18,968 bases of DNA from Myxococcota bacterium (GTDB lineage: Bacteria; Myxococcota; XYA12-FULL-58-9; JALHOP01). Under the pieces are notes generated by a model. It did not search any database. It saw nothing but the letters and a program-made list of their open reading frames with translations, and was not told the DNA's origin. The translations under genes and the position numbers were made by a program. Every line of letters begins with the position of its first letter. The stretch's first letter is position 1. This document shows, piece after piece, positions 22 to 14,850 of the stretch. The DNA lies in the NCBI GenBank assembly GCA_041288095.1, contig JBGGMJ010000046.1, forward strand, positions 1-18,968, read 5' to 3'.

Positions 22-1563
22 TCAGGGCTTCGCGAGCGCGACGAAGATGGTCACCCCCTGCCGCTCGATCTGGAAGCGGATGGGTTGGCCGCTCTTCACA
101 CCCTTCACCGCGGCGATCACTTCGCGGGCGTTATTCGCGGCTTTGCCCTGCACGTTGACGATGACGTCGCCGCGCTGGAAGCCGGCCCGCGACGCGACGC
201 TGCCCGGAGCGATGTCCTGAACGACCGCGCCTTGAAGCGTCTTCGCCTTGAGCTGCTCGCGGAGGCCGGCAGTGAGATCCACCACGGACAGACCGACGCT
301 GCCCGCCGATTCGCCGTCGCCTTGGCTCTCGTCTTTGCCTTGCGCCTTGACGCGCGCCGCGTCCTCGGGAAACGCTTCGAGCTTCACCGACAACACCTTG
401 CGCTCGCTGCCGCGCCAGACCACCACCGGTACGCTTTTGCCGACACCCGCCATGCTGGCGTAGAGAGGCAGGTCGCTCGAGCGGACGAGCTTCTTGCCGT
501 CGAACTCGAGGATGACGTCTCCTTGGCGGAGGCCGGCGGCGGCGCCCGGACCGTGGTCGACGACCTCCGAGACCAAGACGCCGTGATCGTCTTTCATGCC
601 GAAGCTCTCGGCGAGCTCGCGGCTCAGGGGTTGGATGCGCACGCCGATCCAGCTGCGCGTGAAGCGCCCTTCGCGCAGCTGCGGCAACATGCCTTTCACC
701 ATGTTGATGGGAATGGCGAAGCCGATGCCCTGGCCCTGCGCGTTGATCGCGGAGTTGATGCCGATGACCTCGCCGCGCATGTTGATGAGCGGGCCGCCGG
801 AGTTACCCGGGTTGATGGAGGCGTCCGTCTGCAAGAAATCGTAGAGCCCTGTCCGCCCCGACGGAGCGATGTCGCGGCGCTGCTTGGCGCTGATGATGCC
901 GACGGATACCGAGTGATCGAGGCCGAAGGGGTTGCCGATGGCGAGCACCCAATCGCCCATGCGCACGGCGTCGGAGTCACCGAGCACCATCGGGGTCGAG
1001 CTCGGCCGCTCGACCGTCTTCACCAGCGCGACGTCGTATTCGGGCGCGGTGCCGACGAGGGTCGCCTTGATGGTGCGCTCGCTGCCGTCCGTCGTAGCGA
1101 ACGTCACCTCGATGTTGGTCGCGTCTTCGACGAGGTGGTTGTTGGTGAGGATGAGGCCGCTCTGGTCGATGAGAAAGCCCGAGCCCAAGCCGTGCCCGCG
1201 CGGCTCGGCTTCGGGGAGGCCACGACCGAAACCGCGGAAGAAGTCGAAGGGGTCCTGGGCTTGCGCCTGCCCCTCACGGCGGCGGCCGCCGACTTCGACC
1301 TGAATGCTGACGACGGAAGGCACGAGCTTCTCGGCGAGGTCCGCGAGCTGCGGCAGGGTCTGAGCGGTGGTCTGGGGACTGACCGGGTTCTCCGCCGGCG
1401 TCGGCAGCGCCAGGTCTGCCGGGTTGGCAGTCGCGTCGGGGGCGAGCGCTTGCGGCACTCGCGGCGTGGATTCAGGGTTTTGGGGCGCGTTGGCAGTCGA
1501 ATCTTGCAACCGCTCGCAACCAAGAATGAGGAGTAGAGCGAAGGTAGTGGATAGTCGTCGCAT
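22..1563 (-). CDS. degP: HtrA/DegP (Do family) serine protease with two PDZ domains, probable lipoprotein
   Basis: Trypsin-like triad motifs TNNHL, YDVAL and INPGNSGGPL; GLGSGF; GNPFGL; two C-terminal PDZ-like segments (WIGVRIQ...GLRQGDVI and VGLSV...GFQRGDVI). Start moved from 2145 to the ATG at 1563 (MRRLSTTFALLLILGC, lipobox-like) because the longer frame overlaps the + strand gene at 1720. Confidence 0.92.
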   Translation of the reverse strand: MRRLSTTFALLLILGCERLQDSTANAPQNPESTPRVPQALAPDATANPADLALPTPAENPVSPQTTAQTLPQLADLAEKLVPSVVSIQVEVGGRRREGQAQAQDPFDFFRGFGRGLPEAEPRGHGLGSGFLIDQSGLILTNNHLVEDATNIEVTFATTDGSERTIKATLVGTAPEYDVALVKTVERPSSTPMVLGDSDAVRMGDWVLAIGNPFGLDHSVSVGIISAKQRRDIAPSGRTGLYDFLQTDASINPGNSGGPLINMRGEVIGINSAINAQGQGIGFAIPINMVKGMLPQLREGRFTRSWIGVRIQPLSRELAESFGMKDDHGVLVSEVVDHGPGAAAGLRQGDVILEFDGKKLVRSSDLPLYASMAGVGKSVPVVVWRGSERKVLSVKLEAFPEDAARVKAQGKDESQGDGESAGSVGLSVVDLTAGLREQLKAKTLQGAVVQDIAPGSVASRAGFQRGDVIVNVQGKAANNAREVIAAVKGVKSGQPIRFQIERQGVTIFVALAKP

Positions 1564-1622: not shown

Positions 1623-1649
1623 GCACCAACCCCCGCCCCCTGCCGATAA
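1623..1649 (+). promoter_or_regulatory. sigma28 (FliA/WhiG)-like promoter, GCACC-N14-GCCGATAA
   Basis: Perfect sigma28 -10 box GCCGATAA at 1642-1649 in intergenic DNA 70 nt upstream of ATG 1720. The -35 position (canonical 4-mer-N15 spacing) reads GCAC, like the other copies in this window. Confidence 0.6.
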
Positions 1650-1719
1650 CCCGATAGACGATAAACGCGTCAAGCATCCTTCTGCCCTGAAGAACGCTTG
1701 CACCTCGAGGGTTGAGCTG

Positions 1720-2649
1720 ATGGACGTCTCTCGTATCGATTCGGTTCAGAGCTACGGTCAGACAAGCCAAACCACGGAGCAGGCGAAGAAACGCCTGACT
1801 CTCAACGAGTCGAGCAGCTTCGCCAAGGGCACCTCGGGCATCGACCTCACCGCCATCAAGAACCCGGTCGACGCCGTCAACAACACCCAAGAGGGGCGCG
1901 TTCTCCAGACGCGCGACGGCAACGAGATCGAGATTCCGACCCTCGACGCCGAGACACGCGCCAAGGTCAACGCACTCCACGCGAAGGTCAGTGAAGCCGG
2001 CCGCCAACGCCTGCAGGCCGCTGGTCTCGAGCTGGGTCGCGCTTGTTTCGCGTACGTCGCCGCCACCCGCGCCATGAGCAAGGGTGAGCCGACCGGCAGA
2101 GCCCAGCTCGAAGCCGCGACCTCGGCGCTCTACGGCGCCGCGCAAGCGAACCTCGCAGCCGTCGCCAACGAAACGCAGGGCAAGCCGCCGAGCGGCCTAT
2201 CGCAAAAGGCTTACAACGACGCGATGACGGACGCGATGACCAACGGCATGGCCGGCGTCGAAGCCGATCTCAATGCGACGATGGAAAAGTTCATGAAGAA
2301 GGCGCAGATGGCCGAGACCATCGACACCGACTCCGCCGAGCTCGCCGACATGCTCGCCAATTGGCCCGAGGGCAGCTCGCAGACCTTCACCTGGCACGAG
2401 GCGGTGAAGGACGACAGCGGTAATTGGAGCATCGTCGAAAAGACCGCCACGCTCTCGAAGGAGCAGGCCGAGGATCTCTCCCACAAGCTCTCCGCCGACT
2501 CGCAGGGCTTGAACAGCATGAGCGCCATCGAGATGCAGATGCTGCAGGTCCAGGTGCAGGACTATCAGCAGGCGATGACGACGCTCAGTAACGTCATGAA
2601 GTCGCACGACGACAACCTCAAGGGCATCATCCAGAACGTCAAAGCGTAA
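1720..2649 (+). CDS. Hypothetical protein with T3SS needle/filament (SctF/Bsp22)-like C-terminus
   Basis: 309-aa ORF with high GC3 codon usage, Ser/Thr/Gln-rich N-terminus and no Sec signal. It ends LNSMSAIEMQMLQVQVQDYQQAMTTLSNVMKSHDDNLKGIIQNVKA, a pattern resembling the terminal helix of T3SS needle and filament subunits. The coding call is secure; the function is inferred. Confidence 0.75.
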   Translation: MDVSRIDSVQSYGQTSQTTEQAKKRLTLNESSSFAKGTSGIDLTAIKNPVDAVNNTQEGRVLQTRDGNEIEIPTLDAETRAKVNALHAKVSEAGRQRLQAAGLELGRACFAYVAATRAMSKGEPTGRAQLEAATSALYGAAQANLAAVANETQGKPPSGLSQKAYNDAMTDAMTNGMAGVEADLNATMEKFMKKAQMAETIDTDSAELADMLANWPEGSSQTFTWHEAVKDDSGNWSIVEKTATLSKEQAEDLSHKLSADSQGLNSMSAIEMQMLQVQVQDYQQAMTTLSNVMKSHDDNLKGIIQNVKA

Positions 2650-2655
2650 CCCGCT

Positions 2656-4581
2656 TTAGCGAACTGGCATATCGCGGCCGAACTTGGTCTTGTAGGCCTC
2701 GCGAATCGCCGTCAGGGCGTTGTTGTTCTTGTCGTACATGTAGAGCTTGGCGAGATCGGTCCAGGCGCTCTCGAGATCGGGATCGAGCTCGACGGCGCGC
2801 AAGAGGTGCTGAACCGCGGCGTCGGTGTTGCCACCGCGCGCTTCCATGAAGCCCAGCAGCTGATGCGCACGCACGAGCTCGTCGTACGTCGCGAGCGCCC
2901 GAGTGCACTGCTCACGCGCTTCTTTCTGGTGTCCTTGGCGCGCCTCGAGCTCGCAGCCGATGACTTGCAGGCCGGGCGCCTTGGGGAACTTGGCGAGGCC
3001 GCGACTGAGCAGCGCCCGCACGTCACGCAAGTGACCGACCGCGAGACCTTCGCGGGCATCGCGGAGGATGGCGGCGTATTCGCAGTCGTTCCCCAGGTTC
3101 ACGCCCACGTCTTGACCGGCGGGCAGGCCCTGTTGACGGCGCGCCGCGACGCTCCAGGTCGCGATAGTCGCGGCGCCCTCGCCGCCAGCGAGCTTCCCGG
3201 CGCGCTCGGCGGAGACGATACAACCGAGCTGCGCGTAGATGTTGGCGATGTTGGTCCAAGCGGTGCGCGCGTCTTCGGCCACCTTGGGGTCGATGGGAGT
3301 CGCCGGAGCTCCCTGAGGGGCCGCCGCGGGCACCGGCTCCGCCGAAAGCTTCTTGTCGACCTCGCGCGCCTGCTGCAGCGCCGACGCCGTGCTGCCCGCT
3401 AAAGCGTCCAAGCGCGCGAGAAATACCTCGCTGGTCACGAGGTCGCTCGCGTCGGCGGCGCGGGCGCAGAGCTCACGTTCCTCGGCGAAGCCCTTGACGC
3501 GGCTCGGGTGATCGGTCGGAGCGCCGATGGCCATCGATGCGCGTACGTTGCACCCGAAGTCGAGCAAGCGATCGTTGTCGGGGTGCTTCTCGATCATGAC
3601 GTTCGCCAAGGTCCATGCTTCCTTGAGCCGGCCGGAGTTGGCGTAGGTCTCCGCGTGCGTGAAGGTCTCCTTGGTGAGGTTGTCGAACTCGCGCTTCTTG
3701 GGCTTCGCCATGCCGGCCTGCTTGCTACGCCACGGATGCTCGATGGCGTCGCGCACGCGGGCCAGATCCGCTGCATCCGCTTCAGCGGACTCGCGAATGA
3801 GCAGCACGTTGAGCTTGCCGTGCCAGGACGCGACGGCGCCGTTATCGAAGAGCTGATCGCGGTACGCCAAGCCCAAGGCGAAGATGCGTGTCGCGAGAGC
3901 GCCGAGGTCGCGGGTCTGTGGATCGTAAGTGACCGCCATGATGGACGAGGCGTCGCGCGCGTGCGGCGCGCCGAGTGTATGGCCGAGGTGATGCAAGAAC
4001 ATCACCAGCTCCTTGTGCGCGCGGCGCTGCCTGTAGATGTTGCCCCTCTCGAACTCGGCGATGCCCTCGAGCTGAGCTCCCAACGCCGCGAACTCCGCCG
4101 GGTCGTTGATGCCACGCAGCACCATGTGGCGCCCGAGCGTCACCGAAGTGCCCATGGCGTGGATATCGTTGGTGACCTCGCGCGAAGCGCCCATCAAGCC
4201 TACGATCCAGCCGGTGTCTTCTCCGGCGTCGATGGTCTGCAGCTCGGCGAGCGCCGCTTGCAGATCGTCGCCGGCGCTGCGCTCCCAGATACGCGTGTTG
4301 CTGACCTCGAGGCGCACCGCGAACTTTGGTGCGAGCAGCCGGTTCGCCTGCTCGACCAGCTCGCGTACGTGCAGGTCCCACGACGGATCCCGGGTGCGGT
4401 GGCTGGCGTCGGCGTAAACGCGCAGCTTCAAGATCTGCCGCACCGCCGCCGTCGGAGCCGTCCCTTCCATCGTCGCCGGGGCGACTTCGCGCGCCACCTG
4501 GGCCTCACGCTCGGCGGGCGAAGGCCAGCAACCAGACAGGGCCGCGGTGGCGAGCAGAAAAGCGAGGCGGTGGCGCGCCAT
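2656..4581 (-). CDS. Lipoprotein with metzincin (matrixin/reprolysin-like) domain and C-terminal TPR repeats; catalytic Glu replaced by His
   Basis: N-terminal MARHRLAFLLATAALSGC lipobox; HHLGHTLGAPH followed by a Met-turn (SSIMA); TPR-like C-terminus (AHQLLGFM...AVQHLLRAVELDPDLESAWTDLAKLY). Confidence 0.85.
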   Translation of the reverse strand: MARHRLAFLLATAALSGCWPSPAEREAQVAREVAPATMEGTAPTAAVRQILKLRVYADASHRTRDPSWDLHVRELVEQANRLLAPKFAVRLEVSNTRIWERSAGDDLQAALAELQTIDAGEDTGWIVGLMGASREVTNDIHAMGTSVTLGRHMVLRGINDPAEFAALGAQLEGIAEFERGNIYRQRRAHKELVMFLHHLGHTLGAPHARDASSIMAVTYDPQTRDLGALATRIFALGLAYRDQLFDNGAVASWHGKLNVLLIRESAEADAADLARVRDAIEHPWRSKQAGMAKPKKREFDNLTKETFTHAETYANSGRLKEAWTLANVMIEKHPDNDRLLDFGCNVRASMAIGAPTDHPSRVKGFAEERELCARAADASDLVTSEVFLARLDALAGSTASALQQAREVDKKLSAEPVPAAAPQGAPATPIDPKVAEDARTAWTNIANIYAQLGCIVSAERAGKLAGGEGAATIATWSVAARRQQGLPAGQDVGVNLGNDCEYAAILRDAREGLAVGHLRDVRALLSRGLAKFPKAPGLQVIGCELEARQGHQKEAREQCTRALATYDELVRAHQLLGFMEARGGNTDAAVQHLLRAVELDPDLESAWTDLAKLYMYDKNNNALTAIREAYKTKFGRDMPVR

Positions 4582-4641
4582 GGCGGCTTACCATAGGCCT
4601 TCGCGGACTAGCAGGCGAGTGTTAGCGAAGCTTCGCCCACA

Positions 4642-4650
4642 TGGTAGAGT
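4642..4650 (+). promoter_or_regulatory. Extended -10 element (TGgTAGAGT) placed for a leaderless transcript starting at GTG 4657
   Basis: TG-n-TAGAGT at 4642-4650, 6 nt before the GTG; no Shine-Dalgarno sequence. Confidence 0.4.
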
Positions 4651-4656
4651 CGCGAC

Positions 4657-4971
4657 GTGACCATCAAGAAGACCGTCATTGGTCGCGGCCTGCCCCGGAT
4701 CCACCCGGGGCTCGAGCAGAAGCTGCGCGAGGCCGAGGACGCCGAGAAGAAGGGCAAGCGCGTCCGCACCTATGACGGCGTGCAGCGCGTCACCCGCCCC
4801 TCGCTCGATGCTTCGACGGAAGAGCGGGCCTGGCAAGCGCGCACCATCGGTCTCATCGATCCTCAGTACAAGCTCGAGAACGACGCGCTGCAACCGCTCG
4901 CCGAGCAGGCCGCCTTCCGTCCAGGTCAGGACCTCGACAAGATCTGGGACGAGCTCGGCGAGGCCGAGTAA
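4657..4971 (+). CDS. Hypothetical protein (N-terminal fragment of the interrupted HD-like frame)
   Basis: 104-aa ORF with typical high-GC3 codon usage, GTG start and a candidate promoter immediately upstream. Confidence 0.5.
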   Translation: MTIKKTVIGRGLPRIHPGLEQKLREAEDAEKKGKRVRTYDGVQRVTRPSLDASTEERAWQARTIGLIDPQYKLENDALQPLAEQAAFRPGQDLDKIWDELGEAE

Positions 4972-5007
4972 ATTCGCGCCGGCGCCATCGAGCGCTTCCG
5001 CCTCGAG

Positions 5008-6183
5008 ATGGAGTCGGTGCTCAGGCGCGCCGGCAGGGAGTACAAGGAGCCCCACCGCATCGGCGGACGTCTCGACGCCCGTAACCTCAAGCGCAGCGCC
5101 GAAAACGTCAGCGCCGAGGTCGCGACCTTCGCGGAGGTCTTGGCACCCGACAGCTACAGTCTGCTATTGCGGTTCGTCGAAGAGACGCGCGCGGTCCTCG
5201 ATTCGGCGATGCGCCAGCAGGCGGTGCAAGGCGTCGACGCCGTGTTCACCTACGAGCTGGTGCGCGACATGGCACGCAAGCTCGTCTACCAAGAGCTGGT
5301 CTCGCGGCGACGCGGCATGGGCGACCGCGGCATCCGCCGCATCATCGCCAACATCCAGCTCGGCGAATCTCTATACGGCCAGCTCGTGCCGCAAGGCCTC
5401 GCCACCGTCCGCCATCGCATCATGATGCGCATCATCCACGTGCATCAAGACCTCGGGCACACGGCGTATGCGGCGCGCGTGAGCTTTCGCGGCGGCCGCC
5501 TGCATCGCGCTTACGGCGCACGCATCTTCACCGACGAGACCAACAGACTGCGGCCGCTGCTCACGCCCACGGAGCTCGATCTGGTGCGCGCCGCCGTGGC
5601 GACCCACTCCTCCGAAGAGCTGCCGTTCGCGCAAGAGATGGTGCTCGCCTTGGTGCGCGTCGCCGATCACCTGGCGCCGTTCGCGCCTCACCGCGTCTAC
5701 AAGCATCTCGAGGGTATTGCCGGCGTCACCGACTACCTCGACGACATGTTGGCGCGCGCCCGCGCCGGTGACGGTCCCCGCTATGCCGCGATCCGCTCCT
5801 CGCTGCGACGCTACCTCGCGGAGAACACCGAGCTGCCCGAGACGCTGCGCGACGACATCATCGCCGACTTCCGGCCGATCGATCGCGGCGCCGACTTCAT
5901 CGAGATCGGGCCCATGGCGGGCGAGGTCAGCGGCATCACCATCGAGCCACGCGCCAACGGCTCGGCTGGCCGGGTACTCGCGCAGGTCACCTACGACGCG
6001 TTCAGCCACCGCTATCAAGGACTGTTCGATCACCAGCAAGACCAGCTCACGCGCCTCGCCCGCACCACGCGAGTCGACCTCGCCAAGGCGCGAGAGCAGG
6101 TGCGCTTCATGGTGAGCGGCCATGGCTCGCTCGATCTGGAGTTCGTCATGCCACCGGAGCCGGTCGAGAGTGGCGCCGCCTGA
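5008..6183 (+). CDS. HD-domain-like protein with degenerate metal ligands (C-terminal part of the interrupted frame)
   Basis: Motif order matches HD-fold proteins: GDRGIRR (cf. DHGxxH), HVHQDLGH (cf. HDxG), HRAYGA, AVATHS, LVRVADHL. Confidence 0.7.
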   Translation: MESVLRRAGREYKEPHRIGGRLDARNLKRSAENVSAEVATFAEVLAPDSYSLLLRFVEETRAVLDSAMRQQAVQGVDAVFTYELVRDMARKLVYQELVSRRRGMGDRGIRRIIANIQLGESLYGQLVPQGLATVRHRIMMRIIHVHQDLGHTAYAARVSFRGGRLHRAYGARIFTDETNRLRPLLTPTELDLVRAAVATHSSEELPFAQEMVLALVRVADHLAPFAPHRVYKHLEGIAGVTDYLDDMLARARAGDGPRYAAIRSSLRRYLAENTELPETLRDDIIADFRPIDRGADFIEIGPMAGEVSGITIEPRANGSAGRVLAQVTYDAFSHRYQGLFDHQQDQLTRLARTTRVDLAKAREQVRFMVSGHGSLDLEFVMPPEPVESGAA

Positions 6184-6346
6184 CGTGTGGGCGTTGCTGG
6201 GCCTGACGCAGTTGGGCCGCGGTGACGCGGGTGAGCGCCGAATTTCGGCTGGGTCGCGGACACCCTAGAGCACAGACACCTCCACCCAACCGGCTCGGAT
6301 CGCTCGCGGAAGGGCTTCCGGGCGGCCCGGACGCGCTCTCAGGCCG

Positions 6347-6361
6347 TGGCACAGCACTTGA
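6347..6361 (+). promoter_or_regulatory. sigma54 (RpoN)-type -24/-12 promoter
   Basis: TGGCAC-agcac-TTGA versus consensus TGGCAC-N5-TTGC, with exact spacing and one mismatch. It is followed by an AT-rich melting region (AAATAGATA); +1 is predicted near 6371-6373. Confidence 0.6.
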
Positions 6362-6370
6362 AATAGATAG

Positions 6371-6530
6371 GAACCGAGGGCGGCGACGCCCTGGTTCGAC
6401 CCTTCTTTTCTCTGCATGTGTCGCCCCTGCGCGACTCCCAAGTTTCCGTCGGGCCAACCCGACACCCTTCCCCCCTCTGCCTGCGCGGCGCCCGGTCCAA
6501 AAGCCGGGCGCCGCCTCCCTCCTTTTTGGA
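6371..6530 (+). ncRNA. Candidate structured small RNA with four stem-loops and C/U-rich linkers
   Basis: Begins at the predicted sigma54 +1. Stems at 6371-6397 (GCGA GNRA tetraloop), 6420-6435, 6448-6463 and 6485-6514 (11 bp perfect). Linkers are pyrimidine-rich; T-tract at 6523-6527. Confidence 0.5.
6485..6527 (+). terminator. Terminator-like GC hairpin followed by a displaced T-tract
   Basis: GCGGCGCCCGG-tccaaaag-CCGGGCGCCGC, then ctccctcc and TTTTT. The 8-nt gap before the T-tract is non-canonical. Confidence 0.4.
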
Positions 6531-6563
6531 CGCCACAGTGCCGCAAGGTCTCCCCGTGGAGGC

Positions 6564-6590
6564 GCAACCCGCGTCGCAGCGGCCCGATAA
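6564..6590 (+). promoter_or_regulatory. sigma28-like promoter, GCAAC-N14-CCCGATAA
   Basis: 7/8 match to GCCGATAA with GCAA at the canonical N15 spacing, 25 nt upstream of an in-frame TTG that has a GGAG RBS. Confidence 0.55.
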
Positions 6591-6615
6591 AGCTCCAACA
6601 AAACTGGAGCTCCGC

Positions 6616-7491
6616 TTGGGTCCGACTACCGTCAAAGAGTCCATCGCACCGCCCCTGAACATCGTCGGAGCCTCTTCGCTGACTGGCCGCGAGGTCGTCC
6701 CGGTCGCCTCGGCGGGGCAATCAATGCCTCTCGCCGTCGCCGCGTCCTTGATCCGGGAGCAGGACAGCAGCTTCGAGCGCGTCACCTACGGCAAGGCCGA
6801 CTTTCACAACGGGCCATTCGTGCGCGCCAAGAATTGGTGCGCTCGCAACGACCTCAACGTCGACGGCAGCAACTCGCGCGTCGCGGTCGGCTTCGTCGGT
6901 ATCGCCGGCGCCCTGGCGGCGACCATCGGTTATCACGTCTACGTGAACACCGATCCGAACGTCATCACAGCGATCACCGGTGCGCTCATTGCCGCGCCGT
7001 TCCTGGGCTCGCGTTACGTCGTGGGCGCGATCGATTCCCTCGCCGCGCGCAGCATCAAGAAAGCCTTGCGCCGGCAGGTGCAGCTCGAAGCCGTGCGGCC
7101 GAGCATCGTGGCCTTCCGCGAGAGCGTCGGCGTGGAGAAGGCCTTGCGCGGCACGGTCTTGACCTCGTGGTTCGAGCTCATGGACACGAAACGCGCGCTC
7201 AGCGGTCCCGCGCGGGTCGAGCTCATGCGCGTCAAGCAAGAGCTCGAGGCCTTGAGGGCATCCGATCGCAACGACGCGAGTCGTCTCTTCGAGCTCACCA
7301 AGCTGGTCGACGCCAAGGGCGACGTCAGCAGCCATGCCGTCGATGCGATCGTCAGCCAGCTGCAAACCGCTTCAGACGATGAGCGTGCCGCCCTCGCGCA
7401 GGGCGTCGTGCAGCTCCTCCACGAGAACGGCCGCGACGTCGACTACGTTCCCGGCCATAAGCTCCACGAGCTGACCATCGAAAAGCGTTAA
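6616..7491 (+). CDS. Hypothetical membrane protein (two-TM hairpin plus helical C-terminus)
   Basis: Same frame as ORF 6418-7491; start reassigned to TTG 6616 (GGAG at 6606-6609, promoter motif just upstream). Hydrophobic segments VAVGFVGIAGALAATIGYHVYV and VITAITGALIAAPFLG. The stop overlaps the pdxA stop (TTAA 7488-7491). ATG 6724 is an alternative start. Confidence 0.72.
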   Translation: MGPTTVKESIAPPLNIVGASSLTGREVVPVASAGQSMPLAVAASLIREQDSSFERVTYGKADFHNGPFVRAKNWCARNDLNVDGSNSRVAVGFVGIAGALAATIGYHVYVNTDPNVITAITGALIAAPFLGSRYVVGAIDSLAARSIKKALRRQVQLEAVRPSIVAFRESVGVEKALRGTVLTSWFELMDTKRALSGPARVELMRVKQELEALRASDRNDASRLFELTKLVDAKGDVSSHAVDAIVSQLQTASDDERAALAQGVVQLLHENGRDVDYVPGHKLHELTIEKR

Positions 7492-8402
7492 CGCTTGACG
7501 CAGAGCTCCAACGCGAGCTCCAGGGCCGACAGCATGCCCGCCGGCCGCGCCTGGTCCTTGCCGGCGATGTCGTAGGCGGTGCCGTGATCCGGTGATGTGC
7601 GCGGATGCGTTAGGCCGAGCGTCACGTTGACCGCGTCGCCAAAGCCGAGCAGCTTCACGGGGATGAGCGCCTGGTCGTGATAGAGCGCGACGACGCCGTC
7701 GAACTCCCCGTCAACGGCGCGGCGAAACAGGGTGTCGGCGGGATAGGGTCCGCTCAAGCGCACACCGGCCGCGCGCGCCGCCGCCACCGCCGGCTCGAGG
7801 ATCAGCTTTTCGTCGTCACCCAAGAGGCCGTCTTCGCCGGCATGCGGATTGAGGGCGGCCAGCGCCAGATTCGGATCGGCGATGCCGAGGTGAGAGCGCA
7901 GAGCCGCCGTGAAGAGCGCGGCCACCTCGACGATGCGCGCGGCTGAAAGCTGCTTGATCGCCAGCGCCAGCGGCACGTGGACGGTCGCCAGCACGGTGCG
8001 CAGCTGCGGCGAGAAGAACGCCATCGCGGTCGGGCCGGTGCCCATCTCGCGCGCCAGGATCTCGGTATGGCCGCGATCGTTGCTGCCGGCCAACGCCAAG
8101 GCATGCTTCGAGATGGGAGCGGTGACGAGGCCGTCCGCCTGTCCGCTCTTGCACAAGGCGATACCGGCGGCGAGCGTATCGAGCGCGGCGCGGCCACTGG
8201 CGGCGCTCGCGCGACCGAGAGGCCCCGCGAAGGGCGCGATGGAGTGGGCACGCTTGCCCAAGCGCCGCGCCATCGGGTCCGCTATGTTTTCGGGCCCGAC
8301 GACGATGATGCTCGCGGCCGCCGGCAGAGTCGCGATCGCTTTTTCGGTGACCTCGGGCCCGATGCCCGCCGGGTCGCCCACCGTGACCGCCAAAACAGTC
8401 AT
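7488..8402 (-). CDS. pdxA: 4-hydroxythreonine-4-phosphate dehydrogenase
   Basis: Signature motifs GDPAGIGPE, VTAPISK, GHTE, LNPHAGEDG, GPYPADT, YHDQALIPVK, RTSPDHGTAYDIAG; directly downstream of surA. Confidence 0.97.
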   Translation of the reverse strand: MTVLAVTVGDPAGIGPEVTEKAIATLPAAASIIVVGPENIADPMARRLGKRAHSIAPFAGPLGRASAASGRAALDTLAAGIALCKSGQADGLVTAPISKHALALAGSNDRGHTEILAREMGTGPTAMAFFSPQLRTVLATVHVPLALAIKQLSAARIVEVAALFTAALRSHLGIADPNLALAALNPHAGEDGLLGDDEKLILEPAVAAARAAGVRLSGPYPADTLFRRAVDGEFDGVVALYHDQALIPVKLLGFGDAVNVTLGLTHPRTSPDHGTAYDIAGKDQARPAGMLSALELALELCVKR

Positions 8403-8405
8403 GTC

Positions 8406-9545
8406 CTAGATACGGACGTCGATGAATGCCTTGGCGCGCAGCTCCTGCATCCAGGCACCCATCTGGCGCTCCATCTCCTCTTGATAGATCTCGTTGCGGA
8501 ACTGGTTGAGCGCGTCGCCGCTGCAGTCGAGAGGCGCTTCCTCGGGGACGGTGTCCTTGCCGGCGAGCTTGATGACATGGAAGCCGAACGGCGTCTTCAC
8601 CACGCTCGAGACCTCTCCCGACTTGAGCGCGAACGTCGCCTTTTCGAACTCCTCGACCATCTCGCCGCGCGCGAAGCAGATGCGCCCATCGGGCGACGCT
8701 TTGTCGTCCGAGTACTTGTTGGCGTAGGCCTTGAAATCAGCGCCGTTCACGAGCTCCGCCCGGAGCTGCACCGCTTTGGCGTACAAGCGTTCGGTCTCCG
8801 TCGCGCCGGCGCCGTCGGGAACGCGCAACAGGACGTGCATGGCACAGACCTTCTTGTCGTCGCCGATGCGGCCACGCTCTTCGCAACGGCGCAGGACCTC
8901 GGCCTCCTTCACCTGCACGCGGCCCTGCACCTTGAACTGCACGAGGCGCGCCCGCTCGATCTGATCGCGCAGCTTCTTGCGGTATTCGGACCAGGTCATG
9001 CCCTGACTGTAGAGCGCTGCCTGCAGTTGATCCTCGGTGATGTTGTTCATGCGCAAGACTTCTTGCACGGCGCGGTCGACGTCCTGCTCGGTGACGCCGA
9101 GGCGATCTTTGTTGGTGCCGAGCTCGTGCGAGACGATGCGCTCGTCGATCTCGATGTTGAGCACCTGCTTCAAGATGGCGACGCGCTTCTTGTCGCGTTC
9201 GCTCGGGTCAGTCACGCCCTCGAGCTGGCTCATGTAGGGCTGCGCCTTCTTCTCGAGCTCGCGGATGGTGATGACTTCGTCCTCGATGACGCAGGCAATG
9301 CGATCGACACCAGTGCGCGGCCCCTTGGGCGTCGTTCGCTGCATCGGCGCGAGCTTTGGCGGCGGCTTGCGGCGCTTGTCGTCCTTGTCCTTGTCCATGT
9401 TCGGGAAGCTGTTGTTGTTGCGGCCGCCGAAGCCACCACCACCGCCTCGGCCGCCCATGCCACCCATGCCGCCGTATTGGGCATGCGCACTGTCCGCGAT
9501 AGCGAGCACGGCGAGCCAAGCCACGATGAACGTCTTAAATGACAC
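8406..9545 (-). CDS. surA: SurA-like periplasmic chaperone / parvulin PPIase
   Basis: VDRIACVIEDEVIT (SurA N-domain), a parvulin domain (HVLLRV...YSDD...GEMVEEFEKATFAL...KTPFGFHVIK) and WMQELRAKAFIDVR end. Start reassigned to GTG 9545 (GAGGAG upstream, signal peptide ending AHA-Q), overlapping the previous gene's end. Confidence 0.88.
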   Translation of the reverse strand: MSFKTFIVAWLAVLAIADSAHAQYGGMGGMGGRGGGGGFGGRNNNSFPNMDKDKDDKRRKPPPKLAPMQRTTPKGPRTGVDRIACVIEDEVITIRELEKKAQPYMSQLEGVTDPSERDKKRVAILKQVLNIEIDERIVSHELGTNKDRLGVTEQDVDRAVQEVLRMNNITEDQLQAALYSQGMTWSEYRKKLRDQIERARLVQFKVQGRVQVKEAEVLRRCEERGRIGDDKKVCAMHVLLRVPDGAGATETERLYAKAVQLRAELVNGADFKAYANKYSDDKASPDGRICFARGEMVEEFEKATFALKSGEVSSVVKTPFGFHVIKLAGKDTVPEEAPLDCSGDALNQFRNEIYQEEMERQMGAWMQELRAKAFIDVRI

Positions 9546-10473
9546 GGGACAACTGCTCCTCACGAACCACGATCTGCGATTTGCTCCGCAGCTCGGCGAT
9601 CTTCGCCGCATGGGCGTCTCGTTCTTTGTCTTTACGGAGCCGCGCCTCGACGTCATCGCGTACCTTTTCGATGGGACGCGGGGCCGGCGGGCGATGCTCG
9701 AGCACTTTGAACACGTGAAAGCCGTATTCGCTAGGGATCACGGGGCTCACCTGGTTCACCGGCAGCTTGAAACAGGCCTCGTCGATGACCTTGGGCATCT
9801 CACCGTGCGCGAAGAAGCCGAGATCACCGCCGTTCTTGGCCTCTGGGCTAATGGATTCGCGCATCGCCACCTCTTCGAAGGCCTTGCCGGCGCGTAGCTC
9901 CTGGAGGACGCGTTTTCCGTCCTCTTCGGTCTTCACGATGATCTGACGGGCGCGGACCTGCTCGGGGGAGACGTTCAGCGCCGGGTTCTTCGTAAGATAG
10001 CCCTCGATCTCGGCGTCGGTCACGGCGACGCGCGAGTAAACGTGGTCGTGGAAGTACTTGCGGATGACGAGCAGCTCCCGCACCTCGGCTTTGAGCTCGG
10101 CCGTGGTCATGTCTTTCTTCTGCAAGAGCTGGTCGAACTCGTCGTCGCGCCAACCCTGGCGTAGGTTGTCGTAGCCGCGGTCGACGTCGTCGGTGCCGAC
10201 GATGACGTTTTCGGCCTCGGCGGCGCGCGTCAGCAAGCGCCGATCGATCAACATGTCGAGGATGGCGCGCTTCTGGGCGTCGTCCGAGGTCTGCGACGGC
10301 AGCCCTGCCTCATCGTCGTCGCTACCGCCGTGGAAACGCTTGAGCTCACGCTCGAGCTCGTCGACGTAGATCGGCGAGCCAGAGACCGTGGCGAGGATCT
10401 CGCGGCGTTCTTCTTGGTTGTCGTTCTTGCATGCGACGGCCGCCATCGCGGCGACGAGCACGAGACGTTTCAT
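9535..10473 (-). CDS. Parvulin (PpiC-type) peptidyl-prolyl isomerase lipoprotein, PrsA/SurA-like
   Basis: MKRLVLVAAMAAVAC lipobox; VRARQIIVK, GGDLGFF, SEYGFHVFKV rotamase motifs; ATGA overlap with the upstream gene. Confidence 0.92.
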   Translation of the reverse strand: MKRLVLVAAMAAVACKNDNQEERREILATVSGSPIYVDELERELKRFHGGSDDDEAGLPSQTSDDAQKRAILDMLIDRRLLTRAAEAENVIVGTDDVDRGYDNLRQGWRDDEFDQLLQKKDMTTAELKAEVRELLVIRKYFHDHVYSRVAVTDAEIEGYLTKNPALNVSPEQVRARQIIVKTEEDGKRVLQELRAGKAFEEVAMRESISPEAKNGGDLGFFAHGEMPKVIDEACFKLPVNQVSPVIPSEYGFHVFKVLEHRPPAPRPIEKVRDDVEARLRKDKERDAHAAKIAELRSKSQIVVREEQLSRVI

Positions 10474-11441
10474 GGAGTCGGCTCCTGCGCCGCTTCGATG
10501 CTGCGTTGCAAGCCCTCGAGCACCAGGGCGAGCTTGTCGTCGTAGACGGCGATTGGATAGCGCGCGCGCAGCTCGGCGAGGTACTTGTCGAACGCGAGCG
10601 ACCGCTGGTTCTTCAGGAGCCTCTCGCGGATCTCGTCGCGCACCTCGTCGATCGGCCGTGCCAAAGCCTCACGCACCGCGACGACGCGCACCACGTGCCA
10701 GCCCTTGGTGCTCTGCACCGGCTGGGCGGCCATCTCGTTGGTGGCGAGAGAGAAAACGTCGTTCGCGAAAGAGACACCGAGCTCGCTCGCCAGCTCCTGC
10801 TTGGTCTTGAAGAGCAGCTCGCCGCCGCGGTCCTTCGACTCGGACGCAGTGGAGAAGCGCTGCGCCATGGTCTTGAAGAGCGCCCGGTTGTCCGTTTTAG
10901 CGGCGAGCTCGGTGATGAGCGCGGCGGCGGTCGACTGGCCCTTCTCGTCGGGTGAGAGCTGGATGTGCGCGATGCGCCGCATCTCCGGCTGCATGTACTG
11001 ATCGCGGTTGCGATCGTAATACGACTGCATCTCCTTCTCGGAGACGACGACACCCTCTTCGTTGAAAGTCGCCTCGCCGAGATCGCGCTCGAGGAGCTTA
11101 CGGACCATGATCTTGCGCGCCGCGGCGATGACCTCGGGATCGTGGTCGAGCCCGCGCTCCAGCGCGGCTTGCGCGAGGAGCTCCAAGCGCACCTGGTCCT
11201 CGACGAACTGCTTCACCTCGCCGACGTCTTTGTAGCGACGCGGCGCCGCCTGTCCCTGGGCGCGGATGGCTTCGACAATCTGGTCGCGGGTGATCGGAGT
11301 GATGCCGACCTTGGCCACCGCCGGGCCCTCCTGCACCGCTGGCTGCAAGCACCGACCGCTGCTACCCGAACGACCTTGCGGCGGCGTGCAAGCCACCAAG
11401 GCGAGGCAGAGAAGATGAGCTAAGACGCGGCCGTAAGGCAT
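10470..11441 (-). CDS. Parvulin (PpiC-type) peptidyl-prolyl isomerase lipoprotein
   Basis: Start at ATG 11441 gives MPYGRVLAHLLCLALVAC (lipobox); RRIAHIQL, SKDRGGEL, PVQSTKGWHVVRV rotamase motifs. Confidence 0.9.
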   Translation of the reverse strand: MPYGRVLAHLLCLALVACTPPQGRSGSSGRCLQPAVQEGPAVAKVGITPITRDQIVEAIRAQGQAAPRRYKDVGEVKQFVEDQVRLELLAQAALERGLDHDPEVIAAARKIMVRKLLERDLGEATFNEEGVVVSEKEMQSYYDRNRDQYMQPEMRRIAHIQLSPDEKGQSTAAALITELAAKTDNRALFKTMAQRFSTASESKDRGGELLFKTKQELASELGVSFANDVFSLATNEMAAQPVQSTKGWHVVRVVAVREALARPIDEVRDEIRERLLKNQRSLAFDKYLAELRARYPIAVYDDKLALVLEGLQRSIEAAQEPTP

Positions 11442-11504
11442 CGGTGCCAGGTGGGTAGCACCCGGAACCTGCTCAAGCAACCAACCGGCTGCGCCGCGGG
11501 TGAT

Positions 11505-13397
11505 CTAGCGCTGAGCCGCCGCGTGACGAGCCAGGTAATCGCGAATCGTCTGCTTGGCGTGGGTCACGGCCTCGAACGGCTCCTGCCCCGTTGGCCACAC
11601 CAGCTCGAGGACGTCGAGGGCACGGCGGGCTGCGTCCGGATTCGGCAGGACGCCCGGCGCGGCGTCGTCTGACACCGTGTTCACGGTTTCGAGCAAGCGG
11701 CGGTAGGTCGCGCGCTCGGCCTCGGGACGCGAGCTGTCGGCAACGCGACGTTCGAGCTCCGCACGGAAGGCGGCCGGATTGATCATGTACGGGAAGGCGA
11801 AGGAGCGCTCCGGGGTCGCGAAGACACGGCGACGGAATTCCGGATCCATCGTGATGTCACCATTACGATCGGCTTCCTGCATGGCGCCGTAGAGACCGAT
11901 GAGGATCGAGTCACCGCAGTGCCCGAAGACGCCGTAGCCATCGGCGCGCAAGCGCTGCGCGGTAGCGGACGTCGATATGGTGTCGGCATAGAGGCCGGCG
12001 TCGATGATCGTGCGCAAGGCAGCAGGGCCTCGCACGGTCACGTAATCGCGACCATTGGTCCAGGCCGAATCACGCTCGACGCTGCCCGGGAAGAAGCCGA
12101 TGTTGCTTACGCCCTGGAACCACGCAGCGCCGCCGGTGATGCGCGGGCCGGGCGCGGCGGCATCCGCCGGCGGGCGCACGCTAACGTTGAGCTCGAAGTG
12201 GACCCAAGGCACCAGCGCCTGGCGTCCATCGGCGCCGCGTAGACCGATAGTCGAAAACGTCGGCACGGCGAGCTTGGTGAAGGAGCCGTCGGCGTTACGC
12301 ACCGACAGGTCGGGGAGATCCGCGCCCTGCATGCGCAGGCGCACCTCGAGCTGGTGGCCGCTCGCCTGGAGATCGGTGAGGAAGCTGGCGAGGCTCGTGT
12401 ACGTCTTGTCGCCAAAACGGACACTGAAGCGCTCCCCTGGGTTCTTGACATGCTCGTTCGAGCCAAGGCGGTCGAGGACCTCGGACCAGAGGCGATTCTG
12501 ACGCTCGGCGGTGAGGTCGCCGGTCGCGGGCAGCTCGCCGTAGTAGAGGGGGCCGGCAACTTGCCGCGGATTCACGCGGTTGGTGCGGATAGTCGAAAGG
12601 TCGAAGGTGTTGAGATCGACGTGACGGCCGAGCTGATGGTCACGCTCCGTGCCACCGACCTGACCGGCCTGGTACGCGCGATTGAGATGCTGGAAGCCGG
12701 TGCGGACCTCGTCCGGGCCCCAGGCGAAGATGCGCATGAAGAGCTCGGGGCGATTGAGGAGACTGCGAACCGCGAACTCGGGCAGGGGGATGCCCTGCGC
12801 GCGCAAGACCTGCGTGAGCTCGCGCTGGAGCTCCGGGTTCTGCTGCGCCAGGCGGAACATTTCGGGATAGCTGAGCGTGTCGTTGTAGCGCGTGGTGTCG
12901 AGGCGCATGGCGGTCGAGAAATCCGCAAAGCCCTCCGGCGGATGCAGAGCACGCTCACGCAGCATGCCCATGAGGTCGCCCTTGGCGTTGGCCGCGGGCT
13001 CCGGCACCAAGAGAGGAAGGCCGAACAGGAAGCCGACCGAGTCGGCCCAAGCGGCGGCAGCGGTGCCGACGATGCCGGTAGCCACGGCGCCGGCGCGGTA
13101 GCCGGTCCCGCCGAGAGCCCACAGGTCGCGGGTGATGCCGTAGTTTGCGCGGCTCCAGCCGCCGACGCGCGAGAAGGGCGAATACCAGCGCGAGCCCGAC
13201 TCGGCTGGTGGATCGGGCTGCGGCGTCGAGGCCGGGCGAGCGGTCGGTGTCGATTGAGCGCGAACGACCGGGAGCCGCGGGGTGGCGTCCGCGATGCGGA
13301 GGATGGGGGGCTGGGCCGGGGCATCGTCGGTGAGCACCACGGGGGTTCGATTGGGCTCGACTCTGGAAGCTGGGGAAAGAGGTGCCACTGCGACCAT
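11505..13397 (-). CDS. Hypothetical protein, 630 aa, with Pro-rich disordered N-terminus
   Basis: Long ORF with coding-like codon bias; about 70-aa Pro/Thr/Ala-rich leader, one hydrophobic segment (AVATGIVGTAAAAWADSVGFLFGLPLLV) and a globular C-terminal part containing GYGVFGHCGDS. Confidence 0.8.
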   Translation of the reverse strand: MVAVAPLSPASRVEPNRTPVVLTDDAPAQPPILRIADATPRLPVVRAQSTPTARPASTPQPDPPAESGSRWYSPFSRVGGWSRANYGITRDLWALGGTGYRAGAVATGIVGTAAAAWADSVGFLFGLPLLVPEPAANAKGDLMGMLRERALHPPEGFADFSTAMRLDTTRYNDTLSYPEMFRLAQQNPELQRELTQVLRAQGIPLPEFAVRSLLNRPELFMRIFAWGPDEVRTGFQHLNRAYQAGQVGGTERDHQLGRHVDLNTFDLSTIRTNRVNPRQVAGPLYYGELPATGDLTAERQNRLWSEVLDRLGSNEHVKNPGERFSVRFGDKTYTSLASFLTDLQASGHQLEVRLRMQGADLPDLSVRNADGSFTKLAVPTFSTIGLRGADGRQALVPWVHFELNVSVRPPADAAAPGPRITGGAAWFQGVSNIGFFPGSVERDSAWTNGRDYVTVRGPAALRTIIDAGLYADTISTSATAQRLRADGYGVFGHCGDSILIGLYGAMQEADRNGDITMDPEFRRRVFATPERSFAFPYMINPAAFRAELERRVADSSRPEAERATYRRLLETVNTVSDDAAPGVLPNPDAARRALDVLELVWPTGQEPFEAVTHAKQTIRDYLARHAAAQR

Positions 13398-13417
13398 CCT
13401 GTTCTTAGCGAAGGACA

Positions 13418-13445
13418 GGATCGGTGACGCGCGGTCATTAGTTGC
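13418..13445 (-). promoter_or_regulatory. sigma28-like promoter (weaker copy), GCAAC-N15-ACCGATCC
   Basis: Minus-strand copy of the motif, 20 nt upstream of ATG 13397; the spacer is 1 nt longer and the -10 box is degenerate. Confidence 0.4.
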
Positions 13446-13481
13446 GGCAACGCGAACTGAAAACGAAGCAGCACAAAGTGC

Positions 13482-13508
13482 GCAACACCCGGCCGCCGCA
13501 GCCGAAAA
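13482..13508 (+). promoter_or_regulatory. sigma28-like promoter, GCAAC-N14-GCCGAAAA
   Basis: 7/8 match to GCCGATAA with the same -35 word and spacing as the 6564 copy; 38 nt upstream of ATG 13547. Confidence 0.55.
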
Positions 13509-13546
13509 CCAGAGTGGACAATCAAACAGATACTCAGGGTGCTTTT

Positions 13547-14848
13547 ATGGATTTGATGGCCGTAGCATCGCGATTCCTCCGTCGTGACGCGGACTTAGCG
13601 CCGGCGCCGAAGGCACCAGCCAAGACGACGACCGCCCCCGCTGCCTCCTGCGGTGATTGTGGAACCTGCCAAGCTGTCGAACCGTGCGCCAACGCCATCG
13701 ACGAGGCCCTGAAGCTCGCCGCCAACCGCATCGCCTCCCTCACCGCGCTGGCTCCGAAGGGCGAGCCGTGGACCGGCTGGCGGCCTTTCGAGATCGTCAA
13801 CCGCATCGAAGAGGCCGATCACCAGGTCACCTTCGAGCTCAAGCCCTGCGACGGCGAGCCCATCCCCGGCTACAAGCCCGGCCAGTTCCTGACCGTCGGT
13901 CTCACGATCAACGACGTACAAGAGCAGCGTTGCTACAGCCTCTCCGACTCCCCACAGCAAGACGTCTATCGCATCACCATCAAGCGCGTGCTCGCGCGCG
14001 GCGAGACCGCCCCCGCTGGCAAGGTCTCGAATTTCATCCACGACCAACTCCAGGTCGGCAAGAAGCTCGAGGTGAAGTCGCCGGCGGGTGAGTTCGTGCT
14101 CGACATGGCGAAGACGACCCCGGCCGTGTTCATCGCGGGTGGCGTCGGTGTCACGCCGTTCCTCTCGATGCTCAAGATGGTCGCCGACACCGGCAGCGAG
14201 CGGCAGGTGCATCTCTTCTACGCGGTCGAACAGACGAGCGAGCTAGTGCGCGCCGCCGAGCTCCGTGAGCTCGCCGCCCGACATCCGAACATCAAGGTGA
14301 GCTTCGTCGTCGCCAAACCCAAGGATAGCGAGCAGCCGGGCGTTCACTTTCACCACACTGGTCGCATCAGCATGGACCTGCTCAAGAGCCAGCTGCCGAA
14401 GGGTAACTACGACTTCTTCATGTGTGGACCGGGGCCGATGATGGCCGCGATGACCGAGGCCTTCCAACACGCCGGCGTCAGCCACCGCAACATCCACACC
14501 GAATCGTTCGGCGCCGCGCCGGCGAAGCCCGCGAGCGCCAGTCCGCTCGAGCGTGCACTCGGCGTCAACACCCCGGCGGTCGAAGTGCACTTCGTCGGCG
14601 TCAACCGAACGGTCGCGTTTTCGCCCGACAAAGGCTCGCTGCTCGAGCAGGGGCTCGCTGACGGCATCGAGCTCAACTCGATGTGCCGCTCGGGCAGCTG
14701 CAAGGGCTGCCAGTGCAGTCTGGTGAGTGGCAAGGTCGAATACCCCTTGGGTGACCCAGGCGTCCCCCCGGGCAAGGTGCTCCCGTGCGTGGCTGTGCCA
14801 CTTGCCGGTGAGCCCGTCGTCATCAACGAAACGATCGCGCGGAGCTAA
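13547..14848 (+). CDS. FAD/NAD(P)H-binding oxidoreductase with C-terminal 2Fe-2S ferredoxin (PaaE/Hcr-like FNR family)
   Basis: RCYSLS and GKVS (FAD), AGGVGVTP and MCGPGPMM...ESF (NAD), CRSGSCKGC...VLPC (2Fe-2S). Start reassigned to ATG 13547 (AGGGTG upstream, downstream of the promoter motif). Confidence 0.92.
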   Translation: MDLMAVASRFLRRDADLAPAPKAPAKTTTAPAASCGDCGTCQAVEPCANAIDEALKLAANRIASLTALAPKGEPWTGWRPFEIVNRIEEADHQVTFELKPCDGEPIPGYKPGQFLTVGLTINDVQEQRCYSLSDSPQQDVYRITIKRVLARGETAPAGKVSNFIHDQLQVGKKLEVKSPAGEFVLDMAKTTPAVFIAGGVGVTPFLSMLKMVADTGSERQVHLFYAVEQTSELVRAAELRELAARHPNIKVSFVVAKPKDSEQPGVHFHHTGRISMDLLKSQLPKGNYDFFMCGPGPMMAAMTEAFQHAGVSHRNIHTESFGAAPAKPASASPLERALGVNTPAVEVHFVGVNRTVAFSPDKGSLLEQGLADGIELNSMCRSGSCKGCQCSLVSGKVEYPLGDPGVPPGKVLPCVAVPLAGEPVVINETIARS

Positions 14849-14850
14849 TC

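Follow-up and report, generated by a model that had tools for sequence, protein, structure and literature searches.

In an 18,968-nt stretch of the genome of an uncultured Myxococcota bacterium (GenBank assembly GCA_041288095.1, contig JBGGMJ010000046.1, the whole of this stretch being called the window below), four dispersed genes are preceded by copies of a bipartite element that combines a -10 box of the sigma-28 type with a different -35 box. A first-pass annotation of the window had taken these copies for the promoters of a lineage-specific sigma-28 variant controlling scattered type III-exported proteins. The observation is confirmed here and proves much larger than first seen; judged from sequence, the sigma-28-variant reading is well supported, and type III export of the products is plausible. 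We consider it rather likely that a factor of the sigma-28 family, most probably the one designated FliA2 here, reads the GCAAC/CCGATA promoters of a regulon linked to a secretion system of type III (T3SS). Beyond what had been noticed earlier, the likely sigma gene lies inside a type III cluster, and the motif stands before type III operons.

A promoter class spread over the genome

The window is contig C46 of a 5.85-Mb metagenome-assembled genome (66% G+C, 90% complete; referred to as G000), in which a purpose-written gene finder based on codon usage placed 4,962 genes, with 92.8% of the sequence coding and 7.3% intergenic. Genome-wide the motif reads GCAAC-N15/16-CCGATA(A/C), the weight-matrix consensus of the -10 box being (G)CCGATA(A/C). 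Exact copies were found 81 times as GCAAC-N14-NCCGATA and 36 times in the N15 form, whereas the same half-sites at other spacings occur in the whole genome only 2 (N11), 0 (N12), 4 (N13), 1 (N16), 1 (N17) and 1 (N18) times. As many as 110 of the 117 exact sites are intergenic, though intergenic DNA makes up only 7.3% of the genome, and the distance from the -10 box to the next start on the same strand peaks at 20-60 nt, with a median of 46 nt. When one mismatch is allowed, the two real spacings yield 302 intergenic sites and nine control spacings 3-10 per class. The weight matrix gives 244 and 104 intergenic matches of at least 15 bits at the real spacings against 2-10 per control spacing, and 281 and 133 of at least 13 bits against 12-19. 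Because of these counts at real and control spacings, the promoter class is put at about 300-400 members, rather than the handful that the four genes of the first-pass annotation had suggested.

The -35 box is GCAAC in 234 of the 302 intergenic sites, with GCACC, ACAAC and GAAAC as variants, of which GCACC occurs at 21 intergenic and 4 coding sites genome-wide. CCGATA is the commonest intergenic -10 box (178 intergenic, 36 coding); its variant CCGAAA is found at 17 intergenic and 2 coding sites, and CCGATC is weakly enriched (6 intergenic, 5 coding). The -35 box of enteric sigma-28 promoters is TAAA, and a second -35 class of that kind was sought among the other intergenic CGATA sites, where only weaker GCAAC variants were found. 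On sequence grounds, there is good support for regarding the motif as a genuine class of promoters, in which the -10 box (CCGATA) is of sigma-28 type and the -35 box is changed. The earlier idea of a sigma-28-like promoter with kept spacing and altered -35 thus survives a genome-wide matrix scan, in which the motif is strict in spacing, far above the control spacings and concentrated in intergenic DNA, oriented towards gene starts. The promoters are mildly clustered, with 40 neighbour gaps shorter than 2 kb against 29.8 ± 4.4 expected. Three consecutive genes on one strand (182, 402 and 66 aa; G000:C10:79858-83576, minus strand) each have a motif site of their own (20.7, 24.3 and 25.3 bits).

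Candidate sigma factors and the type III cluster

Two sigma factors of this genome, FliA1 and FliA2 (Table 1), have FliA_WhiG (TIGR02479) as their best-scoring family, both under its curated cut-off of 189.6 bits, and the 80-aa gene directly after FliA1 encodes a FlgM (PF04316, 31.3 bits against a cut-off of 25). An assignment to the extracytoplasmic function (ECF) group was not obtained, FliA_WhiG being the best family and the Pfam regions 2 and 4 lying about 90 residues apart. The identity of FliA2 orthologues is 95-99% within the genus and 63-80% in 16 of 18 further members of the order; in certain other families it is 37-69%, and the motif counts fall in the same order. The genomes of the genus and order with such an orthologue contain 8-143 exact matches against 2-9 for a control pattern, the exception being the 65%-complete G007 (1 against 1).

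The motif does not track flagella. It is still present in members of the order where no rod genes were found (37 exact matches in G004, 42 in G015, 19 in G010 and 17 in G006), whereas flagellated genomes without a FliA2 orthologue have one match (G024) or none (G032 and G038). Five flagellin loci (in G001, G002, G003, G005 and G011) show no site of at least 15 bits before the flagellin gene; the one match close to that level, 14.3 bits in locus L155, lies within the match to the flagellin coding sequence. In the 90%-complete assembly of G000 itself, rod, hook and flagellin genes were sought and not found, and all three congeners (G001, G002 and G003) have rod genes, flagellins, a second FHIPEP gene and a second FlgM, along with a third FliA-like sigma next to the rod genes. 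The flagellar regions of the congeners (G001:C2:514-548 kb, G002:C2, and G003:C59 and C10) look full and include an FlhA-like gene, and flagellar genes are present in 24 of the 40 Myxococcota relatives sampled. The idea that the lineage of G000 is unflagellated was rejected, as all three congeners have flagellar genes; the flagellar cluster of G000 was either lost or is merely unassembled.

As for the secretion machine, SctV of G000 scores 850.8 bits against a cut-off of 692.25 (hrcV), with the FlhA model staying under its own cut-off, and SctU was found as well. SctJ, SctL and SctN are each the best family of their genes, under the equivalog cut-off, and a match to the FliI/YscN subfamily reaches 561.6 bits against a cut-off of 379.5. 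The genome therefore holds both what the first-pass annotation presumed, type III export genes (SctV, SctU, SctJ, SctL and SctN), and a sigma gene of the presumed kind, there being two FliA/WhiG-like sigmas and a FlgM. The best match to the secretin SctC (TIGR02516) in this 90%-complete genome stays at 142.3 bits against a cut-off of 238.45.

The order of genes around the sigma was read in three genomes (G000; G004, locus L151; and G029, locus L148 on contig C57), and in all three the FliA2-like sigma stands in the arrangement TPR protein, small orphan, sigma, sctI, sctJ. In G000, FliA2 is 11 kb from the sctI-like/sctJ/.../sctL/sctN operon, and SctV, SctU and RpoH are located elsewhere; the order is kept, but an operon for resistance-nodulation-division (RND) efflux splits the sigma from the sctI-like gene, in a cluster that is unbroken in G004 and G029. 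The G000 operon for a 185-aa protein, a TPR protein, a 159-aa orphan and FliA2 has sites of 15.7 and 17.2 bits at its head, a site of 17.9 bits heads the sctI-like/sctJ operon, and one of 17.2 bits lies 382 nt upstream of sctV. G029, a 9-Mb genome of another family, has on one strand a 24.2-bit site followed by an orphan (191 aa), a TPR protein, a further orphan (131 aa) and the FliA2-like sigma, continuing with SctI, SctJ ... SctL, SctN, SctO, SctP-like, SctQ, FliO-like and SctR, S, T and U; downstream of SctU follow four tandem sites (15.6, 25.4, 20.1 and 19.0 bits), then a TPR protein and SctV. Exact matches number 5 in the whole of that genome, 3 of them on the T3SS contig C57 and 2 of these inside the cluster. 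In G004 the order is TPR, orphan, sigma, SctI, SctJ, FliG-like, SctL, SctN, SctO, SctP, SctQ and FliO. Gene order and the positions of sites in the three genomes support a link of this sigma with type III secretion.

The four tandem sites of G029 (L148 13740-15090, minus strand) are about 430-475 nt apart, and two of them precede unannotated open reading frames (ORFs) of 73 and 78 aa. Between sctJ and sctL, both G000 (G000:C92:21671-22693) and G004 (L151 12089-13126) have a gene for a FliG-like protein that matches FliG_M/FliG_C weakly; such a gene in a non-flagellar cluster would fit a machine intermediate between flagellum and injectisome.

The small orphans encoded directly upstream of the sigma in the three genomes are homologues of one another (44% and 23% identity). 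In G000 this 159-aa protein has no Pfam family at E<=0.01 and hence is no member of FlgM (PF04316). Its co-folding with residues 66-294 of FliA2 gave an ipSAE of 0.76, the best control giving 0.00; among solved complexes 116 of 157 reach this mark, among mismatched pairs 2 of 215, a calibration that holds only roughly for the small, purpose-made alignments used in the co-folding. The runs agree in at least 43% of contacts, with a partner pLDDT (predicted local distance difference test) of at least 57, and the modelled contacts join sigma regions 2, 3 and 4 to the C-terminal half of the partner. The 159-aa orphan is thus predicted to bind FliA2 and, because of the analogy with FlgM, may act as an anti-sigma factor that exits through the machine. 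The resemblance to the flagellar FliA/FlgM pair includes the CCGATA core, the spacing, FliA_WhiG as best family, a sigma gene within a type III export cluster and a small protein encoded beside the sigma and predicted to wrap regions 2-4. The differences are the GCAAC box at -35, the absence of flagellar genes from the sample of downstream genes, a partner without FlgM match in Pfam, and two sigmas that both score under the family cut-off.

Sigma factors encoded together with secretion genes exist elsewhere: in the HrpL/hrp box system of plant pathogens and in BtrS/BtrA of Bordetella, where the anti-sigma is secreted, the promoter marks the apparatus operons as well as scattered effector genes. 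These seem the closest parallels in logic, the system described here being, by analogy, an alternative-sigma secretion regulon, with a sigma encoded beside secretion genes and its candidate promoter before apparatus operons. However, HrpL and BtrS are ECF (group 4) sigmas, whereas the candidate sigma here is FliA/WhiG-like with a region 3, and the downstream proteins are candidate effectors.

As to the apparatus, the nearest relative is T3SS* of Myxococcus xanthus (mxan_2434-2464), which according to two reviews of myxobacterial predation is without secretin, needle and translocon and has several LcrH-like chaperones, and the effectors or substrates of which are stated there to be unknown (PMC12075869, PMC10433427). 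Common to T3SS*, as far as those reviews describe it, and the present system are SctD, I, J, L, N, O, P, Q, R, S, T, U and V, the genes for TPR/LcrH-like chaperones and the lack of a T3SS secretin above cut-off; the present lineage differs in that it also has proteins, about 300-400 aa long, which carry a C-terminal helix of the needle family. The word sigma has 0 occurrences in the accessible text of PMC10433427 and PMC12075869, and a literature search, the scope of which left out a 2022 Cell Reports paper on the M. xanthus system, returned no account of a FliA-like sigma in a myxobacterial type III cluster.

Composition of the regulon and competing explanations

Most genes behind the motif are orphans. 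Among the 101 genes following exact sites, 81 have no Pfam family (threshold E<=1e-4), against 31 of 101 randomly drawn genes with an upstream gap (Fisher p 1.3e-12), so that the enrichment before orphans implied by the first-pass annotation does exist. Among the 20 members with annotation are peptidases (three of family S8, one C11, one M64 and one trypsin-like), a lipase, a GH3 glycosidase, a PHB (polyhydroxybutyrate) depolymerase and a serpin, together with adenosine deaminase, a Ser/Thr kinase, glutathione peroxidase and a homoserine dehydrogenase fusion; flagellar or chemotaxis genes are absent (0 of 101).

For the N-termini, the 316 first genes after intergenic sites of at least 15 bits were compared with a background of 2,192 genes. 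By a crude test, Sec-like leaders are present in 17 of the 316 against 389 of the 2,192 (p 8e-10), and in 52 against 683 if any alternative start is allowed. The fraction of Ser/Thr/Pro/Ala in the first 30 residues is 0.378 in the regulon and 0.315 in the background (p 2e-21), and the difference holds against background proteins without hydrophobic N-termini (0.385 against 0.308, p 2e-20). Ribosome-binding-site words precede 45% of the regulon genes and 32% of the background, so errors in start assignment are unlikely to explain these differences. The Sec-less leaders rich in Ser/Thr/Pro/Ala, pointed out earlier for the genes of the window, are therefore a statistical property of the whole set. 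The S8, C11 and M64 peptidases, the GH3 glycosidase and the serpin have no leaders and carry polar N-terminal extensions, and 267 of the 316 first genes are singletons in an all-against-all BLASTP comparison. From these N-terminal and orphan properties it is plausible that the downstream proteins are type III substrates.

On the explanation that we prefer, FliA2 would have kept the CCGATA -10 box and would use GCAAC as its -35 box. Encoded in a needle-poor myxobacterial type III cluster (TPR chaperone-like protein, small orphan, sigma, sctI, sctJ), it would drive its own operon, the sctI-like/sctJ...sctL/sctN operon, probably sctV, and the needle-domain proteins, as well as some 300-400 further scattered transcription units, mostly for lineage-specific proteins without Sec leaders. 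The 159-aa protein would hold FliA2 as FlgM holds sigma-28, with release presumably coupled to the secretion machine, and in that case the regulon would amount to a late programme of the machine, with cargo as a sizeable part.

Several points weigh against this explanation. FliA2, at 163.7 bits, is short of the FliA_WhiG cut-off; no site of at least 11 bits lies before sctU of G000 and none of at least 13 bits in the stretch of the G004 cluster that was read; and sites at two of three type III loci have a chance probability of about 0.04, which is modest. The weight matrix was trained on the same sites that it counts, the only guard against circularity being the control spacings with the same half-site matrices, and matrix, gene models and leader test are all rough, purpose-written tools. 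The regulon contains ordinary-looking enzymes (the FNR-like reductase of the window, the homoserine dehydrogenase fusion and glutathione peroxidase), and a lack of Sec leaders is equally typical of cytoplasmic proteins. Furthermore, these promoters may also be read by FliA1, or mainly by it in the genus: the six genomes with a pair of FliA1 and short FlgM have the six highest motif counts (117 in G000, 121 in G001, 143 in G002, 91 in G003, 60 in G005 and 45 in G025), and G005 reaches its 60 matches with a FliA1 of 59% identity and a short FlgM, no FliA2 orthologue having been found in it. This six-of-six coincidence, together with G005, makes FliA1 a serious rival or a second reader.

That FliA1 is the main reader, with FliA2 serving only the secretion cluster or sharing the same specificity, is nevertheless rather unlikely in our estimation. 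FliA1 is at 166.1 bits as FliA_WhiG-like as its counterpart and has the adjoining FlgM, but no FliA1 orthologue or FlgM was found in G004, G010 and G015, which have 19-42 matches against 2-4 for the control, and G029, without FlgM or a close FliA1, has six sites inside the cluster of its FliA2-like sigma. Before fliA1 there is no site of at least 11 bits, and, as the genomes are related, the six-of-six coincidence is weak statistics. We would give not quite an even chance to a global programme of a life phase or of stress, in which the secretion system is one target and nearly all other products are intracellular. The set's size (316 first genes with sites of at least 15 bits), the reductase/dehydrogenase operon of the window, the adenosine deaminase, the Ser/Thr kinase and the other enzymes above, and the scarcity of Sec leaders, which fits cytoplasmic proteins, all favour it, and there is a precedent in Bdellovibrio bacteriovorus. 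According to the report on that predator (PMC3627812), TTAAG-N16-CCGATA is found in 92 of 140 attack-phase promoters, and FliA is proposed to regulate globally a group of genes among which are those for proteases and for many proteins of uncharacterised function. The -10 box, the spacing and the many non-flagellar genes downstream, proteases and uncharacterised proteins among them, agree with the present case. The -35 box, however, is TTAAG there and GCAAC here, and the sigma there is a flagellar FliA in a flagellated cell, as far as that text goes; here the motif occurs irrespective of flagella, the candidate sigma lies in a non-flagellar type III cluster, and the set, as predicted in silico, is about three times larger. 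A global intracellular programme is also at odds with N-termini that differ from those of other leaderless proteins, with leaderless members of normally extracellular families (S8, C11, M64, GH3, serpin), with at least two proteins bearing a needle-family C-terminal helix in the set, and with a sigma gene placed inside the secretion cluster in three of three genomes examined.

It is very improbable that the motif is the late flagellar promoter of an ordinary FliA whose gene, with the flagellar cluster, is missing from the 90%-complete assembly. The congeners do have the rod genes, flagellins, second FHIPEP, third FliA-like sigma and second FlgM not found in G000, but the motif is kept where no rod genes were found, is absent from flagellated genomes outside the order, and precedes neither flagellar or chemotactic genes among the 101 nor, at 15 bits or more, the flagellins of the five loci. 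Less probable still is that the element is no promoter at all, but a repeat or a site bound by some transcription factor. Nothing specific speaks for this view, and the element consists of two short conserved boxes around an unconserved spacer of fixed length, stands in fixed orientation at a promoter-like distance, and has a -10 box identical to that of a known sigma class.

A wider proposition, offered tentatively and in our opinion doubtful, is that the motif is the signature of the myxobacterial T3SS's own sigma. In this genus it would label proteins that are secreted or injected, several hundred in number and for the most part orphans, which come and go as cassettes of promoter plus gene; the sigma would be freed when a novel FlgM-like partner leaves via the machine; and the motif would predict the cargo of this 'needleless' system across the Myxococcota. 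A cluster-encoded sigma, a candidate partner and a sharp motif would together provide a route to a list of candidate cargo in any genome of the phylum. The data also suggest that the flagellar logic of sigma-28 and anti-sigma was retained, with a changed -35 box, in an early non-flagellar offshoot of the flagellar export machine, and that the regulon of one lineage expanded to several hundred promoters from a few linked to the cluster, as in G029 with its 5 exact matches.

Promoters and genes of the window

The four strings of the first-pass annotation are present in the window exactly as written and at the positions given for them (Table 1), and the next-best match in the window scores 13.4 bits. 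P4, the weakest of the four, is 22 nt from ATG 13397 or 79 nt from 13340, the start preferred by the Atlas record and the gene finder. It scores 15.7 bits without the spacing term and is probably real, because 104 intergenic matches reach at least 15 bits at its spacing against 2-10 at control spacings. The -35 and -10 boxes of P1 are invariant in two relatives (L109 and L110; 88% and 78% protein identity), while the spacer has diverged and in one of the two is one base longer. A promoter footprint is possible for P1 only, because a search of five relatives gave nothing beyond a 35-nt match for the P3/P4 region (13200-13750) and, for the P2 region (6300-6900), a match only to the flank upstream of the promoter. 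Segment 6527-7491, with P2 and its 291-aa gene, is missing from the congener G001, the flanks of which align to window positions 4843-6526 and 7492-8934 with only about 40 nt between them. As the segment is missing between collinear flanks, P2 and its gene come and go as one unit, and appear to behave as one insertable or deletable cassette.

Table 1. Promoters, genes and sigma factors discussed in the text. Unprefixed positions refer to the window; promoter scores include the spacing term.
Feature	Position	Strand	Description
P1	1623-1649	+	GCACC-N14-GCCGATAA; 20.8 bits; end of CCGATA 72 nt before ATG 1720
P2	6564-6590	+	GCAAC-N14-CCCGATAA; 25.7 bits; exact consensus, best of the window; 27 nt before TTG 6616
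P3	13482-13508	+	GCAAC-N14-GCCGAAAA; 23.3 bits; 40 nt before ATG 13547; CCGAAA variant of -10
P4	13418-13445	-	GCAAC-N15-ACCGATCC; 17.4 bits; divergent from P3; CCGATC variant
HtrA/DegP-like serine protease	about 22-1458	-	Lipoprotein-like leader; assigned by codon-position G+C
309-aa protein	1720-2649	+	After P1; disordered N-terminus, helical bundle, type III needle-family C-terminal helix
291-aa orphan	6616-7491	+	After P2; two hydrophobic segments side by side in the centre; TTG probably the start, with GGAG 6 nt upstream
630-aa orphan (611 aa if start 13340)	11505-13397	-	After P4; Pro/Ser/Thr/Ala-rich N-terminus
Three-gene operon	13547-17918	+	After P3; genes abut or overlap by 4 nt
FAD/NAD/2Fe-2S reductase (FNR-like)	13547-14848	+	First gene of P3 operon; Pfam
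668-aa orphan	14851-16857	+	Second gene of P3 operon
Zinc alcohol dehydrogenase	16854-17918	+	Third gene of P3 operon; Pfam
FliA2	G000:C92:35188-36072		FliA/WhiG-like; 163.7 bits against FliA_WhiG (TIGR02479)
FliA1	G000:C127:21744-22571		FliA/WhiG-like; 166.1 bits against FliA_WhiG (TIGR02479)
RND efflux operon and 488-aa orphan	G000:C92:24471-35154		Outer-membrane factor, two permeases, adaptor; insertion between sigma and sctI-like gene

The filament-like C-terminus that had been noticed in one protein is found in the 309-aa product behind P1, the last 60-odd residues of which resemble the type III needle family PF09392, below the curated cut-off (E 0.0037; 17.8 bits against a gathering cut-off of 29.4). 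The same match was obtained at E<=0.01 in 6 of 10 homologues, the only ones found (best 6.1e-05). By cut-off and by size, needle proteins being about 80 aa long, the 309-aa protein does not belong to the PF09392 needle proteins. It has no Sec-like leader, and its AlphaFold2 model has a mean pLDDT of 73.8, with residues 1-59 under 50. Foldseek against PDB returned only weak rows (NheA, MakB and IpaD; E 7e-3 to 0.1, TM about 0.15), VIA-align over 48,161 chains gave Z <8 and generic helical bundles, and a profile search of PDB sequences gave one chance-level match; no structural family is claimed for it. Three proteins of the genome, of about 294 or more (G000:C196:1-885), 402 (G000:C10:81060-82268) and 309 aa, differ in their N-terminal parts and end at the extreme C-terminus in a common needle-family helix, LQVQ.Q.Y.Q.M...S.V......I.QN.K/R; the gene of the 402-aa protein is the one with the 24.3-bit site mentioned above. 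Such helices are odd for a system called needleless in M. xanthus.

The orphans of 291 and 630 aa have no Pfam or NCBIfam family and no usable relative in the ESM Atlas. The Atlas record of the former is exactly the same 291-aa sequence, starting at TTG 6616; an alternative start at 6418 was rejected, as P2 would then fall inside the ORF and TTG 6616 has a ribosome-binding site. The Atlas record of the 630-aa orphan starts at residue 20. The statement that all four sites precede non-housekeeping genes holds for the orphans and the 309-aa gene and fails for P3, the first gene of which, a reductase heading an operon, is not obviously accessory; P3 looks like the promoter of apparently ordinary redox metabolism. 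An ORF of 508 aa on the plus strand (10-1536) is an antisense artefact with a codon-position G+C of 0.86/0.47/0.69, opposite the HtrA/DegP-like protease gene, and P1 therefore sits in a divergent intergenic region. Between P2 and P4, the minus strand (7488-11480) carries pdxA and, upstream of it, three tandem paralogues of SurA-like peptidyl-prolyl isomerases (416, 312 and 336 aa), the first two ORFs of which overlap as listed.

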